From: Candidatus Bathyarchaeota archaeon
Lineage (GTDB): Archaea; Thermoproteota; Bathyarchaeia; Bathyarchaeales; Bathycorpusculaceae
Length of the DNA: 64,000 nt
Reading direction: 5' to 3'
Assembly: GCA_963772455.1 (NCBI GenBank)
Contig: CAVYXJ010000009.1
Span: 64,001 to 128,000 of the forward strand
A program made the translations under genes and the position numbers. Shown here one piece after another: positions 45,202 to 63,076 of the stretch; position 1 is the stretch's first letter; the number at the start of each line of letters is the position of its first letter. Below the pieces are notes generated by a model. It made no database searches. It saw only the letters and a program-made list of their open reading frames with translations, and was not told the DNA's origin.

Positions 45202-45678
45202 TTGGCAGTTAAAGTAGGCGATAAAGCACCTGATTTCAAACTCCAATCTCAAATGGGAGACGATGTCAGGCTCTCAGAGTTTTTTGGCAAAAAAAATATA
45301 GTCTTGTATTTTTACCCTAAAGATGAAACAACCGGTTGTACAAAAGAAGCCTGTACCTTTAGAGATAACTATGAGGAACTAACCAAGTTGGATGCTGAAG
45401 TGATTGGTGTAAGTGGGCAAAGCGTCGAATCTCACAAATCCTTCGCCAGCCATCATGGATTGCCGTTTATTCTTCTCAGCGACGAGGGCAATAAGGTTCG
45501 GGAACTTTATGGTGTTCCTTCGAGTATGGGCATTATTCCTGGGCGTGTCACTTACATCATCGACAAGAGTGGCGTGGTTCGTCACATTTTCAATTCCCAA
45601 ACTCAAGCTCAGAAGCATGTGGATGAAGCTAAGAAAACCTTATTGGAAATATTGAAAGAAGAAAATCTAAAAGCTTAA
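45202..45678 (+). CDS. bcp: Peroxiredoxin, BCP/PrxQ family
   Basis: GDKAPDF, YFYPKDET.GCTKEAC.FRD and R.TYIID motifs. Confidence 0.95.
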   Translation: MAVKVGDKAPDFKLQSQMGDDVRLSEFFGKKNIVLYFYPKDETTGCTKEACTFRDNYEELTKLDAEVIGVSGQSVESHKSFASHHGLPFILLSDEGNKVRELYGVPSSMGIIPGRVTYIIDKSGVVRHIFNSQTQAQKHVDEAKKTLLEILKEENLKA

Positions 45679-45692
45679 GCGGAGATCAACAA

Positions 45693-46928
45693 TTGCTGAA
45701 CTTATTCAATACGTTAACACAGAAGAACGAGACCTTCAAGATTGGAGAAGACATGCAGGTCAAAATGTACACCTGCGGACCATCCACCTATCAACCAGCT
45801 CATATCGGAAACTACCGTACATTCCTTTTCGAAGACATTCTTCAACGTTACATGGAATACTTGGGCTACAATGTAAAGCGCGTGATGACGCTCACCGATG
45901 TTGAAGACAAAGCTATTGACCAAGCAAAAAAAGAAAACCTCACAGTTGAAGAGTTAACAAGGAAAAACGAAGCTGTTTTCTTCAAAGACTTCAAGTTTTT
46001 GAAAATCAAAAAGCCCCAATACCCAATAAGGGCTTCGGCGGCGGTAGATCAGGCAACATATTTAATTTCTCAACTCATGGATGCCGGTTACGCTTATCTT
46101 TACGAATATAAGGGTGCAAAAAACGTTTATTTTGACCCACTAAAATTCAAAAGATTTGGAAAACTCGCTCATCTTGACATGAGCAAATGGCCAAAGAAAA
46201 AACGTCGTTTCCACAAAGATACTTACCCCGGTACACCATGGAACAAGGGAGATTTTGTGCTTTGGCACGGTTGTAAAAATGGGAATTCGTGTTACCAAAC
46301 ATCAATTGGAAACGGTCGCCCCGCATGGAATATTCAAGACGCAGCAATTGTCACTAAACAATTGGGATTCACGGTCGATGTTGGGTGCGGTGGAATCGAC
46401 AATTTAGTTAGGCACCACGATTATACGATAGCAGTTGCGGAGGCGGTTTCAGCAAAGCAGTTTTCGAGATTCTGGCTTCATGGCGGACACCTGTTTGTTG
46501 AGGGCAAAAAAATGTCCAAAAGTAGGGGAAACGTGTATTACCCAAGTGAACTTTTGGCAAAAGGTTTCAGCGGCAGTCAGTTGAGGTTCTTTCTTATATA
46601 TGGACCTTATAGGAAAAAACTTAACTTCACATTCGATAAGTTATTTCAGACAACTCAGAAACTGAATACGTTAAAAAACATGGTTAACGAATTGCAAAAT
46701 ACAAAATCATTTAACCAAACTGAAAAGCATGAAACACTAATCAGCAAAATTATACCTAATTTTGAAAGTTACATGAATAATGACTTAGATGTGAAATCTG
46801 CTTTTGACAGCTTAACCGAAACAATCACGAAATTATATGCAAAACGAACCACTTTGAGCTCAAAAGAAATAAAAAACTTGATGATTGAATTGGAAAAAGT
46901 TGATAATGTACTGCAATGTATCTTTTAG
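45693..46928 (+). CDS. Cysteinyl-tRNA synthetase paralog with altered Zn/Cys site and no anticodon-binding C-domain
   Basis: YTCGP..Y..AHIGN, TD..DK, DFVLW, KMSKS and a DALR-like helix. WHIEC is replaced by WNIQD and FPHHENE by VRHHDYT; the protein ends at 411 aa. Confidence 0.85.
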   Translation: MLNLFNTLTQKNETFKIGEDMQVKMYTCGPSTYQPAHIGNYRTFLFEDILQRYMEYLGYNVKRVMTLTDVEDKAIDQAKKENLTVEELTRKNEAVFFKDFKFLKIKKPQYPIRASAAVDQATYLISQLMDAGYAYLYEYKGAKNVYFDPLKFKRFGKLAHLDMSKWPKKKRRFHKDTYPGTPWNKGDFVLWHGCKNGNSCYQTSIGNGRPAWNIQDAAIVTKQLGFTVDVGCGGIDNLVRHHDYTIAVAEAVSAKQFSRFWLHGGHLFVEGKKMSKSRGNVYYPSELLAKGFSGSQLRFFLIYGPYRKKLNFTFDKLFQTTQKLNTLKNMVNELQNTKSFNQTEKHETLISKIIPNFESYMNNDLDVKSAFDSLTETITKLYAKRTTLSSKEIKNLMIELEKVDNVLQCIF

Positions 46929-46933
46929 CGACC

Positions 46934-47173
46934 TTAAACTAGATCGCCAACTAACTTTATCCTGTTAAAAGTTTCTTCGCGGTGAGGAGCCATTTCAAGT
47001 TCTTCTGTTAAGTCTTTGCCTGCATCATGCATACCCATGTGTTCTCCTTCCATCCAGAAACTGCTATCTGTGACTTCATAGACTTTACCCTGAAAAGCAA
47101 AGTAAGCTGGTTTGCCATTCTTACCGTTATTCTGTGCTAATTCTTGACGCGTTATCTTTTTTTGTTCTGACAA
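46934..47173 (-). CDS. Cytochrome b5-like heme/steroid-binding protein
   Basis: EL...NGK.GKPAY.A..G.VY.VT.S..W..G.H...H.AG.DLT...APH pattern. Confidence 0.9.
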   Translation of the reverse strand: MSEQKKITRQELAQNNGKNGKPAYFAFQGKVYEVTDSSFWMEGEHMGMHDAGKDLTEELEMAPHREETFNRIKLVGDLV

Positions 47174-47242: not shown

Positions 47243-48307
47243 TCAATTTCTCATACTGGGTCCGTTTGAAGATTGATAAACCGCGTTTATGTTGATGTTG
47301 CCTAAGTTTGTTCTGGTGTTTATTTCAATATTGTTTGAGGCGGGGTAATTGTCAGATTGGATGGGGGATTGATTACCTGAAAAATGTTGAACATCTAAAT
47401 GTTCACTTCCAAGGTTAGTTTGTGAAATAATTTTGGCTCCAACGTCATTATCGATTTGTAAAGCAATGTTTATTGTACCCAATTGCGTGATAGCGTTCGT
47501 TTGAAGGCTTCCTTTCAATGTCTTAGTTTGAGTTATATCTATTCCAATTGAACCAGCATTTGAATGCAAGGTAACCGTTTGGTTGCCTAAAAGAGACACT
47601 TGGTGCACTCCAAAATTAATTGTTCCAGCCTGAGTAATAAGAGATACTTCACCTTCGATTGTGGCATTTTGTAGGTTTGCCTGAACTTCACCCGCATTTG
47701 AATGAAGGTTTATGGACAGAAAAGTTGCTGATTTATCTCCTGTTAGGGTGACTGATCCAGATTGAGTGGTTACATTAATGTTTAGTTTTAAGGCTGGATT
47801 AATGTAGATAGAACAAGTTAAGTGAATGTTTCCAGTAGGAAACCCTTCAGTCTCAGTTACTTTTGAGTTAATTGTTAACACATTATCTTGGGTTTGGTTG
47901 GTGAAGGTTACCTCGATGGGGGTGGCTGAGCCGAATATACTTCTTGTCCCATTTGCAGAAGTATTGATTAATATATTTTGATTGTTAATAATTTGGGTTA
48001 TTATGGTTACTTGTGCAGTGTTCGCTTGAAAGTTTAGGTTAAGAGTATTGATGCCAGATTGGCCATTTTGGTTTGTTTGGTTAAAGTTAACAGGTGAGAA
48101 AGGAGCAAAAATAATGGCGCTCGCAATTACGCCTACTAACAAAATTGCGATTAATACAGTGGCAGCTATTACTAAGGGCTCTTTTCTTAACGGTCTACTA
48201 AGCTTTACTGGTGCCTCAGGAGAAAATGTTACAATTGGAGTTCCACATTTCTGGCAGAAACGTGCATAATCATCAAGTTTAGCTCCGCATTTACGACAAT
48301 ATGGCAA
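47243..48307 (-). CDS. Zinc-ribbon, TM and DUF4097-like beta-strand-repeat surface protein
   Basis: CRKCG...FCQKCG, a TM helix, then repeated T/S-N-x-G-x-I/V units. Confidence 0.8.
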   Translation of the reverse strand: MPYCRKCGAKLDDYARFCQKCGTPIVTFSPEAPVKLSRPLRKEPLVIAATVLIAILLVGVIASAIIFAPFSPVNFNQTNQNGQSGINTLNLNFQANTAQVTIITQIINNQNILINTSANGTRSIFGSATPIEVTFTNQTQDNVLTINSKVTETEGFPTGNIHLTCSIYINPALKLNINVTTQSGSVTLTGDKSATFLSINLHSNAGEVQANLQNATIEGEVSLITQAGTINFGVHQVSLLGNQTVTLHSNAGSIGIDITQTKTLKGSLQTNAITQLGTINIALQIDNDVGAKIISQTNLGSEHLDVQHFSGNQSPIQSDNYPASNNIEINTRTNLGNININAVYQSSNGPSMRN

Positions 48308-49084
48308 AACGAAACCTCAAATTACACGGTACGCGCCTTACAAATTTAAGGTTTATCAAAACATCTGAAATGCAAGTATCTCCATCAAAATCTTGACCAA
48401 CCCCTTAAGTGATTTAGCGATGATCAAATACGATGATCCAAAAAAAATTTGTATCCTAATTTGCCCTAACCCAAACAGCCTCTCAGCGGTAAACTCAAAT
48501 CATACCTTTTTCAAATCTAGTTCAGAGTTAGAATTGCCTTTCAAAAATCACAGTGCCAGGTTATCGGGATAACGCCGAACGCTGGGGCAAATTCAAATCA
48601 AGCAACAACACAAAAAGGTCGTTCAAGAAGCAAACATCGCCGACCTAACAGTTACGAAAATAATCCACAAAAAAATCCAAAGAAGATAATGATGATGAAG
48701 ATGATGAAACAACACTTTTTCGCAACAGCATCATCTTTCAAATCAACCACTGTTTACCTACATTGAATCGTCAACTTCCATAACTTCAAAAAAAGAACCA
48801 AATTTAAGTTGCACTCTCCTCATTAAGGGGATAGTTTTTCTTCCTTACATGTCGCCCTTAGCTTTTTCATTCTATGGCTTTCTGTGACTTTTCCAGACGC
48901 ATTCTGCAAAAGCCATTAAGCCTAAAACAGAAAAGCAATCCAAAAAAAGATATCTCAAAAATGAAAATTCCACTCTTCTTCTTCTCTTAAAAAGAAAAAT
49001 TTTGAAGAATTATTTTCCTTTCTTAATGATGATGTTATAGGTATTTTAATAAGGTTGACGTTTAACGATTTTGTTGTGATACCT

Positions 49085-50781
49085 GTGTCTGAAAAAGTTC
49101 TCGTTACATCAGCTTGGCCATACATCAATGTTACCCCACATCTAGGCAACCTTGTCGGCTCAGTCTTATCTGCTGACGTTACAGCCCGCTACTATAGACT
49201 AAAAGGTAGTGACGTTTTAATGGTAAGCGGTTCAGATACACATGGCACCCCAATCGAAGTAGAAGCCATCAAACAGGGCATCAAACCAAAAGAATTAACA
49301 GACCGCAATCACGCAAAAGTCGCAGACCTTTTCCGCCGATGGGATGCTTCCTTTGACAACTACACAAGCACAGAAAGCCCAATCCACAAAGAATTCGTCC
49401 AAAAAACCCTTCTCGAAATCCAGAAAAACGGTTACATCTTCGAGCAAGACACTCAAATGCTCTACTGCGAACATGACCAGAGATTCTTGCCTGACCGCTT
49501 CGTAGAAGGCAAATGCCCTTACTGCGGCTGTGAGAAAGCCCGAGGCGACCAATGCGACTATATGTGGCAAACTTTTGGAGCCAACTTTACTGGTAGAACC
49601 GTACTGTGTCATATGCAAAAGCAAACCTATTGTAAAAAATACTACGGCACTGGTACATCGACCTCTCTAAACTCGCCGAACCATTAGCAGAGTACCTCAA
49701 AGAAAATCAACAACTGCCTACAAACGTTAAGAACTTCAGTTTAAACTGGATAAAAGAAGGATTAAAACCTAGAGCAGTCACTCGTGACATTGAATGGGGC
49801 ATTCCGGCTCCGTTTGTAGGTGCAGAAGGCAAGACCATCTACGTTTGGGTAGATGCTGTGTTAGGTTATGTTTCTGCAACAATTGAGCAATGTCAACGCT
49901 TGGGGCAGGCTGAGAAGTGGAAAGAATTCTGGTTTGATAAAAAAGCTAAAACCCTTTACTTCGTTGGTAAAGATAACATTCCCTTCCACACTATAATTTT
50001 ACCAGCGCTTTTGTTGGCTTCAGGTCAAGGCTACAATCTACCCTGGAATGTTTCTGCAACCGAATTTCTTCAGTTTAAAGGCCAAAAAGCTTCCAAAAGC
50101 CAAAGAGTAGGCATATGGATAGACGAAGCCCTTGAGATGTTCCCCGTTGATTACTGGCGTTTCTTCCTAATTGCTACAAGACCTGAAAGCAAAGACACCA
50201 ACTTTACATGGACAGCATTTATGGAGAAAATCAACTCTGACTTCAACGACACATTCGGCAACTTCATTCACCGAACCCTTTCATTCATCAACAGCAAATT
50301 CGACGGGTTAATCCCAGAACCAACCAAACTTGATAAAGACGACGAAGCCGTACTGCAGGTCTTAAAAGAGAAAGTGGGGCAAGCAGCAAAAGAAATTGAG
50401 GATTCATGGCTACAATCCGCCGCCAATACGCTCGTCGGAATAAGCCGTATTGGCAATCAATATCTAAATACCAAGGAACCCTGGAATCTCATGAAGACCG
50501 ACAAGGAGCGTGCGGGAACTATTTTTTATGTTGCTGCTCAGGTCGTTAAGGCAATCGCCGTTGTTTCAGAACCTTTCATACCACAGACGGCACAGCAACT
50601 TTGGCAAACACTAAATCTTGCTGGAAACAGTCGACAAAAGTAATTGGAATGAAGCATTAAAACACTCGAGGCGAGACACAAAATCAATAAACCCACACCA
50701 CTATTCCACAAAATTGACTCAGACGAAATAAAACTTGAAGAAATGCTTGAGCAGATTCGAGCAAAGACACCTCCAAAATAG
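49085..50781 (+). CDS. metG: Methionyl-tRNA synthetase; three frameshifts near 49560, 49645 and 50630
   Basis: [52 protein letters not shown] and KASKS across frames. Confidence 0.95.
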
Positions 50782-62362: not shown

Positions 62363-62905
62363 TTACATATACATTTTCAATGCTTTACTTTTCTGAAGAA
62401 GGAAAATCACAAATAGACTTATTATGAGTTCGGGCAGCAGATAACTTCCATTGTAAATTCCCGAATATACCCAAGGGTTCATCCCTGCAGGTGCGTAAGA
62501 AGCAAAGAAGAGTACTCCTGAAATTAGATGCATGAAAAAGCGTCCTGTGATTGCAACTACAACTCCTGCTAATGCCCACCTTTTATGGAAGAATCCTGCT
62601 AAACCTAGGCAACCAAATGCAAGTGGATAATCCAATAGAACTTGGGGTAAAAAGTATATTTGTGGCATTACAACAAGCTGAACCAAACCGTAGACAAAGC
62701 CTGCGGTCAAACCAATTTTTGGTCCTCTTCGAAGTCCGAGCCAAATTATGGGCACCATAGAAGCCAAAGTAATTGAGCCCCCTTCGGGCAATTGAAAAAT
62801 TATTATGAAGCTCAGTGCCGTTGCCAGCGCAACAAATATTGCAATTTCAGCCAAGACTCTGGAAGTTGAATTACTAGTATATTCGTAAGATTGATTTTTT
62901 GCCAA
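62363..62905 (-). CDS. thiT: Energy-coupling-factor thiamine transporter S component ThiT
   Basis: LPEGGSIT, QVLLDY, RF..H..SGV.FF..YAP and W.YS..YN.SY motifs. TTG at 62905 follows a GGAGG; the ORF-track extension to 63001 is the riboswitch. Confidence 0.92.
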   Translation of the reverse strand: MAKNQSYEYTSNSTSRVLAEIAIFVALATALSFIIIFQLPEGGSITLASMVPIIWLGLRRGPKIGLTAGFVYGLVQLVVMPQIYFLPQVLLDYPLAFGCLGLAGFFHKRWALAGVVVAITGRFFMHLISGVLFFASYAPAGMNPWVYSGIYNGSYLLPELIISLFVIFLLQKSKALKMYM

Positions 62906-62908
62906 TGA

Positions 62909-63006
62909 TTTTCCCTCCGCCAGTATTACCTGGTTCAGGTTCCTAAGGGTCGACAGCAACTCAGCCGTCCTCTCAGCCAGGTCACTTTCCCAGCTCCCCA
63001 AGAACT
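62909..63006 (-). ncRNA. TPP (THI-box) riboswitch
   Basis: Minus strand reads TTCTTGGGGAGCTG...GCTGAGAGG...GACCCTTAGGAACCTGAACCAGGTAATACTGGCGGAGGGAA. It has GGGG, CTGAGA, ACCC, ACCTGA, the CCAG-GTAATA-CTGG P5 hairpin and GCG..GGAA, and lies upstream of thiT. Confidence 0.92.
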
Positions 63007-63076
63007 AAAGGGGATAATGTTTTTAGGTTATATTTGAGTTTTCCTACCTCTCAACAAACGATTAGGATTGTTTAGC

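Follow-up and report, generated by a model that had tools for sequence, protein, structure and literature searches.

A conserved accessory paralog of cysteinyl-tRNA synthetase with a rebuilt cysteine and zinc pocket in Bathyarchaeia

The subject of this study is a 411-aa relative of cysteinyl-tRNA synthetase (CysRS), encoded directly downstream of a Bcp-type peroxiredoxin gene in a 64,000-nt stretch of DNA from a Candidatus Bathyarchaeota archaeon (assembly GCA_963772455.1, contig CAVYXJ010000009.1, positions 64,001 to 128,000; the whole of this stretch is referred to as the window). The gene (45693–46928, +) specifies an accessory second copy and not the translational CysRS of the cell. Its pocket for cysteine and zinc is rebuilt and, judging from its constancy across a clade of related proteins, has been fixed by selection, and the enzyme probably performs a different ATP-dependent ligation than canonical CysRS. 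Our tentative interpretation, offered with less than even confidence, is that of a Bathyarchaeia-restricted enzyme derived from a short CysRS, which activates an alpha-amino acid for a polyanionic acceptor, likely an RNA. An earlier, sequence-only reading of the window had proposed an undescribed adenylating ligase for a non-cysteine or oxidised-cysteine substrate, possibly belonging to a redox or cofactor pathway.

Results

A second copy beside a canonical cysteine-tRNA route

The host genome is a Bathyarchaeia metagenome-assembled genome (MAG) of 2.45 Mb that is 92% complete. A canonical cysS of 474 aa lies on another contig (C7:122012–123397) and scored 505.1 bits over profile positions 3–465 in a genome search, against 312.4 bits over positions 1–402 for the paralog. 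The sequence-only reading had hinged on such a separate cysS, and since this one is full-length and in the same genome, the paralog is not the sole route to Cys-tRNA. SepRS and SepCysS were rejected as a route in the host, as the best scores lie far under the cut-offs (48.4 vs 380.65 bits and 40.7 vs 365.25 bits, respectively). One tRNA-Cys(GCA) was found by ARAGORN, with G1:C72, U73 and an encoded CCA. A paralog-type gene is present in 20 of 41 related genomes, and 19 of these 20 have a canonical-type copy alongside, the exception being a genome that is 56% complete.

The pocket is rebuilt

The paralog matches PF01406 (tRNA-synt_1e) with 251.5 bits over residues 15–320 (Pfam). With the NCBIfam cysS model TIGR00435 it scores 310.4 bits, under the cut-off of 340 and covering positions 1–398 of 466, and with the MshC model TIGR03447 it scores 194.4 bits, the cut-off being 485.1. 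Both ATP motifs were intact by HMMER alignment, as had been read from the letters: HIGN, a HIGH-type motif, at residues 37–40 (45801–45812, +), with H37, G39 and N40 invariant in 23 of 23 sequences, and the KMSKS loop at residues 273–277 (46509–46523, +). The HIGN form is no deviation, since the canonical CysRS of the same genome also has it.

Residues were mapped by HMMER alignment to E. coli CysRS (1li5). C28, W205, H234 and H235 of the E. coli enzyme are kept, as C28, W212, H241 and H242 of the paralog, while H206 has become N213, E208 Q215, C209 D216, P233 R240, E236 D243, N237 Y244 and E238 T245. Two of the zinc ligands in the set C28, C209, H234 and E238 are kept (C28 and H234), which confirms the Asp at C209 and the Thr at E238 (D216 and T245) reported earlier for the window protein. 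The sequence W212-N213-I214-Q215-D216 (46326–46340, +) stands in place of the W-H-I-E-C of CysRS, with Asp at the C209 zinc-ligand column, and R240-H241-H242-D243-Y244-T245 (46410–46427, +) in place of P-H-H-E-N-E, with H241 as the retained His ligand. The Arg that had been said to enter the pocket can be upheld, by alignment, as a substitution of P233 by R240 next to that ligand. Just upstream of HIGN lies Cys28-Gly-Pro-Ser31 (45774–45785, +); Ser31 and Thr68, which we take to be the alpha-amino contacts, are kept.

Down to 43% identity, the residues C28, G29, P30, S31 and T68, the pocket columns W212, N213, Q215, D216, R240, H241, H242, D243 and Y244, and also K273, M274 and K276 are invariant in 23 of 23 sequences. 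Position 245, at the E238 column, may be T, N, I, L, S or A. Thus, of the two ligand substitutions noted earlier, C209 to Asp is a conserved feature, Asp216 being invariant, and E238 to Thr is not. An intact, full-length copy is present at 73 of 80 related loci, and W-N-[IV]-Q-D, R-H-H-D-Y, C-G-P-S and KMSK occur in every one of the 73, so that the check suggested earlier, on the conservation of the WNIQD and RHHDY motifs, came out positive. At the other seven loci the copy is partial or interrupted; these are mostly from long-read MAGs, and indel errors are a possible cause.

Compared with 111 long CysRS, the clade differs at S31 (T in 99% of the long forms), N213 (H in 100%), Q215 (E in 100%), D216 (C in 96%), R240 (P in 94%) and Y244 (N in 83%), and has a specific insertion, W166-P167. 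The W-N-I-Q-D triple change and Arg240 are, on these alignments, the features unique to the clade. Because they are fixed across it, the pocket changes are functional, held by selection and not a product of decay. That the protein is instead a non-catalytic or regulatory relic (a pseudo-synthetase) is very improbable. The gene is accessory, the copies in two genomes (G022 and G205) have in-frame stops, and two degenerate members, P0133 and P0186, fall inside the clade, P0186 being without C28, HIGH and KMSKS; but none of the 23 aligned sequences departs from HIGN, KMSKS, Thr68 or the pocket residues, the pocket and KMSK are intact in 73 of 73 copies, and the fold is predicted by AlphaFold2 (AF2) with high confidence.

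Among other CysRS, the full-length P0190, P0220 and P0264 combine an Asp in the C209 column with a Cys in the N237 column, a pattern that looks like a relocation of the second thiol ligand. P0227 shares the Asp, but its N237 column is occupied by Ala.

The canonical CysRS of the host has a DALR_2 domain (360–413) and an anticodon-binding CysS_C domain (PF23493; 423–469). Pfam gave no match to CysS_C in the paralog, which has no residues left for that domain, and so the view that it lacks an anticodon domain, as MshC does, proved correct. The AF2 model, built on a 23-sequence alignment (pLDDT 92, pTM 0.91), keeps helices 314–407, the helical bundle; on this model, the part missing is the terminal anticodon-reading domain only. 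Pfam, NCBIfam, the alignment, AF2 and Foldseek describe a protein with a Rossmann catalytic core, a CP domain, an SC fold and the helical bundle, and its best Foldseek matches in the PDB were CysRS 8qhp (TM 0.89) and 1u0b (0.87), and MshC 3c8z (0.82).

Metal site and likeness to MshC

When the pocket fragment (residues 195–265) was compared with the PDB, the top match was M. smegmatis MshC (42 bits); the first five also included three CysRS chains, with 37.6–39.8 bits. At the second motif, M. smegmatis MshC has H-H-E-Y-S and the paralog H-H-D-Y-T, vs H-H-E-N-E in CysRS. MshC is described in PMC9736012 as binding zinc through three protein ligands (C43, C231 and H256 in M. smegmatis) and the substrate thiol; in the paralog, the equivalent of C231 is Asp216 and the other two are kept. 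Because MshC binds zinc with three protein ligands, the loss of E238 and the gain of Tyr are compatible with a cysteine-specific enzyme, and since C28, H241 and W212 do not vary and Asp216 could serve as a metal ligand, the paralog may still have a metal site with three ligands in the manner of MshC. The proposed switch to a non-cysteine substrate is not borne out by these residues, as far as a loss of cysteine specificity is concerned. An Arg beside the metal site would, for its part, suit an anionic side chain. The cysteate and cysteine sulfinate suggested as substrates in the sequence-only reading are neither backed nor contradicted by these results.

These similarities bear on a rival explanation, that the paralog is a tRNA-independent ligase of the MshC type, joining cysteine or an analogue to a small molecule or protein through an amide (or ester or thioester) bond, perhaps for a low-molecular-weight thiol or cofactor that serves a thiol-peroxidase system. 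We regard this as possible but doubtful. The architecture without an anticodon-reading domain is the same, the Tyr at the N237 column and the small hydroxyl residue at the E238 column are shared, the pocket fragment ranks MshC first, MshC itself works with three protein zinc ligands (PMC9736012), and there are thiol-redox neighbours in separate lineages (Bcp at 63 of 80 loci, thioredoxin at one locus, L088). However, the score with the MshC model (194 bits, cut-off 485) is below that with the cysS model (310 bits), and the W-H-V-E-C kept by MshC is changed in the clade. No glycosyltransferase or other pathway gene recurs alongside, no fused form hints at a pathway (the best longer match is 38% identical), and the strong positive charge and short-CysRS ancestry described below better fit an RNA.

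The PIG-L family (PF02585), to which the MshB/BshB-type deacetylases belong, had no match in the host genome at its 92% completeness, a further point against an MshC-type ligase (MshA was not searched for), and a mycothiol- or bacillithiol-type pathway was rejected on this ground. The idea of a cysteine persulfide synthase was also set aside. In the work of Akaike et al. (2017) that activity reportedly depends on two lysines of a K-I-I-K motif, and the paralog has K-A-I-D where E. coli has K-I-I-K.

Distribution and origin

Genomes were sampled with a threshold of E ≤ 1e-92, which shuts out canonical copies (best canonical, 3.2e-87). The paralog is present in 50 of 401 sampled Bathyarchaeia genomes, a patchy distribution. 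Leaving aside the host genome, 28 of 40 genomes of its own genus and 35 of 103 of its own family are positive, as are 10 of 18 in family f7, 2 of 11 in f6, 1 of 2 in f19 and 1 of 16 in f26. A sample of the whole phylum gave 9 positive genomes out of 401, all of them in families f1, f7 and f19 of the class to which the window belongs. Nearly all of the 80 related contigs are labelled Bathyarchaeota or Bathyarchaeia, with other labels on seven (Acidoferrum, Methanocella, Sulfotelmatobacter, Thermoproteota and, three times, 'uncultured archaeon'). Misbinning is likely, since six of these seven have the same flanking genes; the seventh (L060) keeps bcp, the cytochrome b5-like gene and the downstream gene, and its two upstream flanking genes are not at the usual position.

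In a representative library of 1.84 billion proteins, a few full-length clusters matched at 44–54% identity (P0121, P0122, P0123, P0124 and P0127), and the full-length matches beyond these were at 41% identity or less and had a canonical pocket. Clade proteins are publicly annotated as cysteinyl-tRNA synthetase or 'class I tRNA ligase family protein'. Searches of full-text literature, without most subscription journals, gave no description of the clade, which agrees with its having been called undescribed. The ESM Atlas holds several CysRS-like clusters of about 400 aa in other phyla, which have no functional names beyond MshC and are leads only. A plasmid collection yielded only cysS-like genes, with no more than 33% identity to the paralog, and 503 Klebsiella plasmid records carry a cysS-like gene of about 29% identity, under the annotation cysS or DALR domain-containing protein.

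In a FastTree phylogeny of 148 sequences, sampled from the 150 best representatives only, the clade is monophyletic with a support of 0.999. Its successive sisters, all of 405–417 aa, are P0166, then P0138, then P0132/P0154/P0229/P0256 (supports 0.954, 0.775 and 0.952). Those with a named source (P0132, P0154, P0166 and P0256) come from MAGs labelled Micrarchaeota, Micrarchaeia, Iainarchaeum and Anstonellales (DPANN); the recorded name is cysteine--tRNA ligase for P0132 and P0154, and class I tRNA ligase family protein for P0166 and P0256. All six sister proteins retain Cys in the C209 column and Asn in the N237 column, and in P0166 the H206 and E208 columns are already N and Q, with T at E238. 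Compared with the paralog clade, five of the six are more basic, and P0256 is similar. As the sister groups are short, mostly more basic proteins that keep Cys at the C209 column, the ancestor of the clade would seem to be a short, basic CysRS that lacked an anticodon domain, and not MshC. The phylogeny that had been suggested as a check thus gave a well-supported clade branching with short archaeal CysRS.

Basic surface and candidate RNA partners

The core of the paralog has an isoelectric point (pI) of 9.4 and a net charge of +18, compared with 5.84 and −8 for the core of the canonical host CysRS, and the median pI is 9.05 in the clade vs 5.84 in the 111 long forms. A conserved loop of the CP domain (residues 165–180; 46185–46232, +) is rich in Lys and Arg, the segment 158–186 having a median net charge of +6 in the clade vs −2 in long CysRS. 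HMMER aligns the loop with the CP1 stretch of the CP domain of E. coli CysRS, the stretch that reads the acceptor stem's first base pair and that is altered in CysRS*, according to Mukai et al. (2017, PMC5389517). With a basic paralog whose nearest relatives are short CysRS from DPANN-labelled MAGs, the case for tRNA independence, as in the MshC with which the sequence-only reading compared the protein, is weakened.

A dedicated tRNA was looked for in the host genome and beside 60 related loci, and none was found. No tRNA gene adjoins the paralog at any of the 60 loci, and the host genome has no tRNA with the suppressor-type anticodons UCA, CUA or UUA and no tRNA-Sec (selenocysteine, Sec) over the cut-off, the best candidate, at 40.8 bits, being a tRNA-Ser. 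These results, together with the absence of SepSecS from the host genome, largely refute for that genome a CysRS*-like role, in which the paralog would charge a special tRNA (Sec-like or suppressor) and serve recoding. Like the paralog, CysRS* lacks an anticodon domain, and it has an altered CP1 loop (PMC5389517) to which the replaced, CP1-aligned loop of the paralog may correspond, some Bathyarchaeota are described as having unusual Sec systems (PMC8762117), and selD is present in the host, but the coupling of CysRS* to selC*/selB* (PMC5389517) is without counterpart here, and we give such a role very little credence.

The selD gene lies outside the window (G000:C13:138658–139533) and scores over the cut-off, with 237 bits. 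Because it occurs without SepSecS or a tRNA-Sec over the cut-off, selenium may be used other than for Sec decoding, or Sec genes may be unassembled. Two other contigs of the host, C1 and C20, gave identical weak matches in the cysS search (24.6 bits, in a 1020-aa open frame), each near a tRNA-Ala(CGC), which suggests that this region is duplicated or redundantly assembled.

Gene neighbourhood

In the window, a 158-aa gene (45202–45678, +) is followed by the co-directional gene for the paralog, which starts with TTG. The former encodes a Bcp/PrxQ-type peroxiredoxin (Pfam, NCBIfam), matching AhpC-TSA with 133.9 bits and PRK09437 with 110 bits, under the cut-off of 140. The 14-nt distance noted between the two genes was confirmed (45679–45692, +); the spacer includes GGAG 8 nt ahead of the TTG, consistent with an operon-internal ribosome-binding site, and a simple scan showed no terminator-like site between the genes, so that co-transcription is plausible. 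A 79-aa cytochrome b5-like protein (46934–47173, −; Pfam) is encoded convergently to the paralog and is a syntenic neighbour only.

Across the 80 related loci, bcp lies directly upstream on the same strand at 63, with a median spacer of about 15 nt, and at 66 the cytochrome b5-like gene comes next, on the other strand, an arrangement that is synteny within one family. At 16 loci the paralog has no adjacent bcp. At the same spot in congeners, all four combinations of bcp and paralog occur: for example, bcp lies directly beside the cytochrome b5-like gene in G017, which has no paralog, and both genes are missing from G024 and G005, where the flanking hydrolase, methyltransferase and cytochrome b5-like genes are in place. 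The link to bcp is not obligate, each gene occurring independently of the other. In families f7 and f19 (L089, L092, L094 and L101), the Y-family DNA polymerase gene dinB lies 13–16 nt downstream on the same strand, amid tetrahydromethanopterin (H4MPT) and formylmethanofuran genes; the f7 paralog sits between methylene-H4MPT dehydrogenase genes and fwdDBA-like genes. Single cases include a thioredoxin gene downstream (L088), carAB overlapping by 4 nt (L100), a formyltransferase (L102), a divergent nitroreductase (L099) and a convergent cation diffusion facilitator (CDF) transporter (L087). The earlier case for a redox pathway, drawn from bcp, is weak, since bcp and the paralog occur together, singly or not at all, and distant members lie beside dinB or other genes. 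No recurring biosynthetic partner or conserved biosynthetic cluster was seen beside the paralog in the lineages examined, and stress-type neighbours (Bcp, thioredoxin, nitroreductase and DinB) recur loosely.

The latter bear on another possibility, a back-up synthetase making Cys-tRNA-Cys under stress, which by having fewer thiol ligands would resist oxidation or zinc shortage. It would agree with Bcp upstream, with dinB, thioredoxin or nitroreductase in other lineages, with the replacement of one oxidisable Cys ligand by Asp, and with an accessory gene that has been lost repeatedly. There are also precedents, as Zur-linked CysRS paralogs are known in proteobacteria (PMC2770081), and a CysRS variant with a deleted anticodon domain retained some activity (Mukai et al., PMC5389517). 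Nevertheless, this explanation appears unlikely. The proteobacterial paralogs, as far as they are described in PMC2770081, keep their zinc ligands, of which the present clade has altered two out of four. The same applies to H206 and E208, found in 111 of 111 long CysRS and also in M. smegmatis MshC, and this second pair of changes is hard to square with an unaltered selection of cysteine over serine. In addition, the paralog is independent of bcp, and no COG0523/Zur-type neighbours occur at the loci examined (COG0523 was not searched genome-wide).

A search for longer proteins gave 58, all with a canonical-type CysRS part and the best with 38% identity, so no fused form of the clade was found. 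Other fusions were seen among P0280–P0335: a long CysRS with PALP (cysteine synthase-type) in MAGs labelled Woesearchaeota and Nanoarchaeota, and CysRS with glycosyltransferase family 2 in MAGs labelled Chloroflexota, Dehalococcoidia and SAR202, the latter of which would suit a glycosyl-cysteine thiol pathway.

Further along the window, a 354-aa protein (47243–48307, −) combines a CxxC pair resembling a zinc ribbon at its N terminus with a hydrophobic segment and a long, repetitive stretch rich in Asn and Thr; in the family, its gene keeps synteny with the paralog block. A methionyl-tRNA synthetase gene (49055–50643, +) runs across three reading frames, with shifts near 49560 and 49650, and appears as two listed open reading frames (210 and 261 aa), which could reflect indels in the assembly or a pseudogene. 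The only Rfam match in the window is a thiamine pyrophosphate (TPP) riboswitch, RF00059, at 62895–63010 (−), with 58.7 bits against a gathering score of 54.3.

Discussion

In the mechanism that we tentatively propose, the paralog would form an aminoacyl-adenylate from an alpha-amino acid, with a Cys28-Asp216-His241 metal site probably replacing the Cys2-His-Glu zinc site. The change from W-H-I-E-C to W-N-I-Q-D, together with Arg240 and Tyr244, would alter the side chain that is accepted, which might be cysteine under an altered metal chemistry, or a polar or anionic analogue of the size of cysteine. The activated residue would then pass to a polyanionic acceptor, most likely an RNA, either tRNA-Cys or a different tRNA recognised by the acceptor stem and not by the anticodon, as with CysRS* and GluQRS. 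An RNA-type acceptor is favoured because the core is basic, the ancestry lies with short CysRS, the basic loop is at the CP1 site and no conserved biosynthetic cluster accompanies the gene in the lineages examined. Use under oxidative or other stress is hinted at by the peroxiredoxin upstream and by dinB or thioredoxin elsewhere.

Several points weigh against an RNA acceptor. The pocket fragment ranks MshC first and H-H-D-Y-T resembles H-H-E-Y-S, which favours a tRNA-independent ligase, and a basic surface would fit equally well with an acidic protein, or with a small molecule of negative charge. The searches for adjoining, suppressor-type and Sec tRNAs were negative, no RNA partner was identified, and the sole tRNA-Cys of the host is ordinary (GCA, G1:C72, U73). 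The short forms of DPANN are assumed from their annotation to be working CysRS, and the tree, limited to the 150 best representatives, may be affected by long-branch attraction. Finally, the metal binding and the substrate of the paralog are pure inference.

In a narrower version of the proposal, the paralog would have switched its specificity away from cysteine and yet load tRNA-Cys, or another tRNA that it reads by the acceptor stem, with a non-canonical residue that is polar or anionic and about the size of cysteine. We think this rather improbable. If true, it would be a natural entry to tRNA-dependent biosynthesis or to stress-conditional recoding in Bathyarchaeia. More generally, this is the first CysRS relative found in our searches in which the zinc/thiolate selectivity site itself has been rebuilt and then frozen by selection, and its hosts are abundant, uncultured archaea of soil and peat. 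The identity of the substrate would reveal either a repurposing of the most selective editing-free synthetase pocket, or a new thiol or RNA-modification pathway in Bathyarchaeia; were the protein merely a stress isoform of CysRS, it would be of specialist interest.

Synthetase-derived paralogs with unexpected chemistry include MshC, GluQRS, PoxA, the amino acid:carrier-protein ligases and CysRS*, and the clade described here is a real, conserved and apparently undescribed variant of this theme. For CysRS, a review table gives two paralogs, MshC and CysRS* (PMC9437257). MshC is, like the present protein, CysRS-derived, of about 410 aa and without an anticodon-reading domain; it keeps HIGH and KMSKS, shares the Tyr of the N237 column, has Ser where the paralog has Thr in the E238 column, and possesses a three-ligand zinc site. 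It differs in keeping W-H-V-E-C, with the second Cys ligand, and a Pro ahead of the His pair, and the paralog clade, which reaches only 194 of 485 bits with TIGR03447, is basic and branches with short archaeal CysRS. The Zur-regulated CysRS paralogs of beta- and gamma-proteobacteria are also second copies, thought to serve under metal stress, but they are described as keeping all zinc ligands and as lying in Zur/COG0523 clusters (Haas et al. 2009, PMC2770081), neither of which holds here.

The CysRS* of Desulfobacterales, as presented in PMC5389517, is again a second copy without the anticodon-binding domain, and its changed CP1 stretch may have a parallel in the loop of the paralog, but it adjoins selB* and the selC* tRNA-Cys(UCA) and is taken to use cysteine; the paralog has no such tRNA or selB-like neighbour, and its cysteine/zinc site is rebuilt. 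GluQRS (YadB), a paralog of a class I synthetase, has no anticodon domain and still acts on tRNA (PMC9437257). It is a truncated GluRS that glutamylates the queuosine of tRNA-Asp and, unlike what is proposed for the paralog, has kept its amino-acid specificity; it belongs to a different synthetase family and has only the class I core in common with the paralog. The short CysRS of DPANN are closest, being strongly basic proteins of 405–417 aa that form the nearest sister groups, with P0132 and P0166 also lacking CysS_C. They are unlike the paralog in having Cys at the C209 column and Asn at the N237 column, and two of the four with a named source are called cysteine--tRNA ligase.

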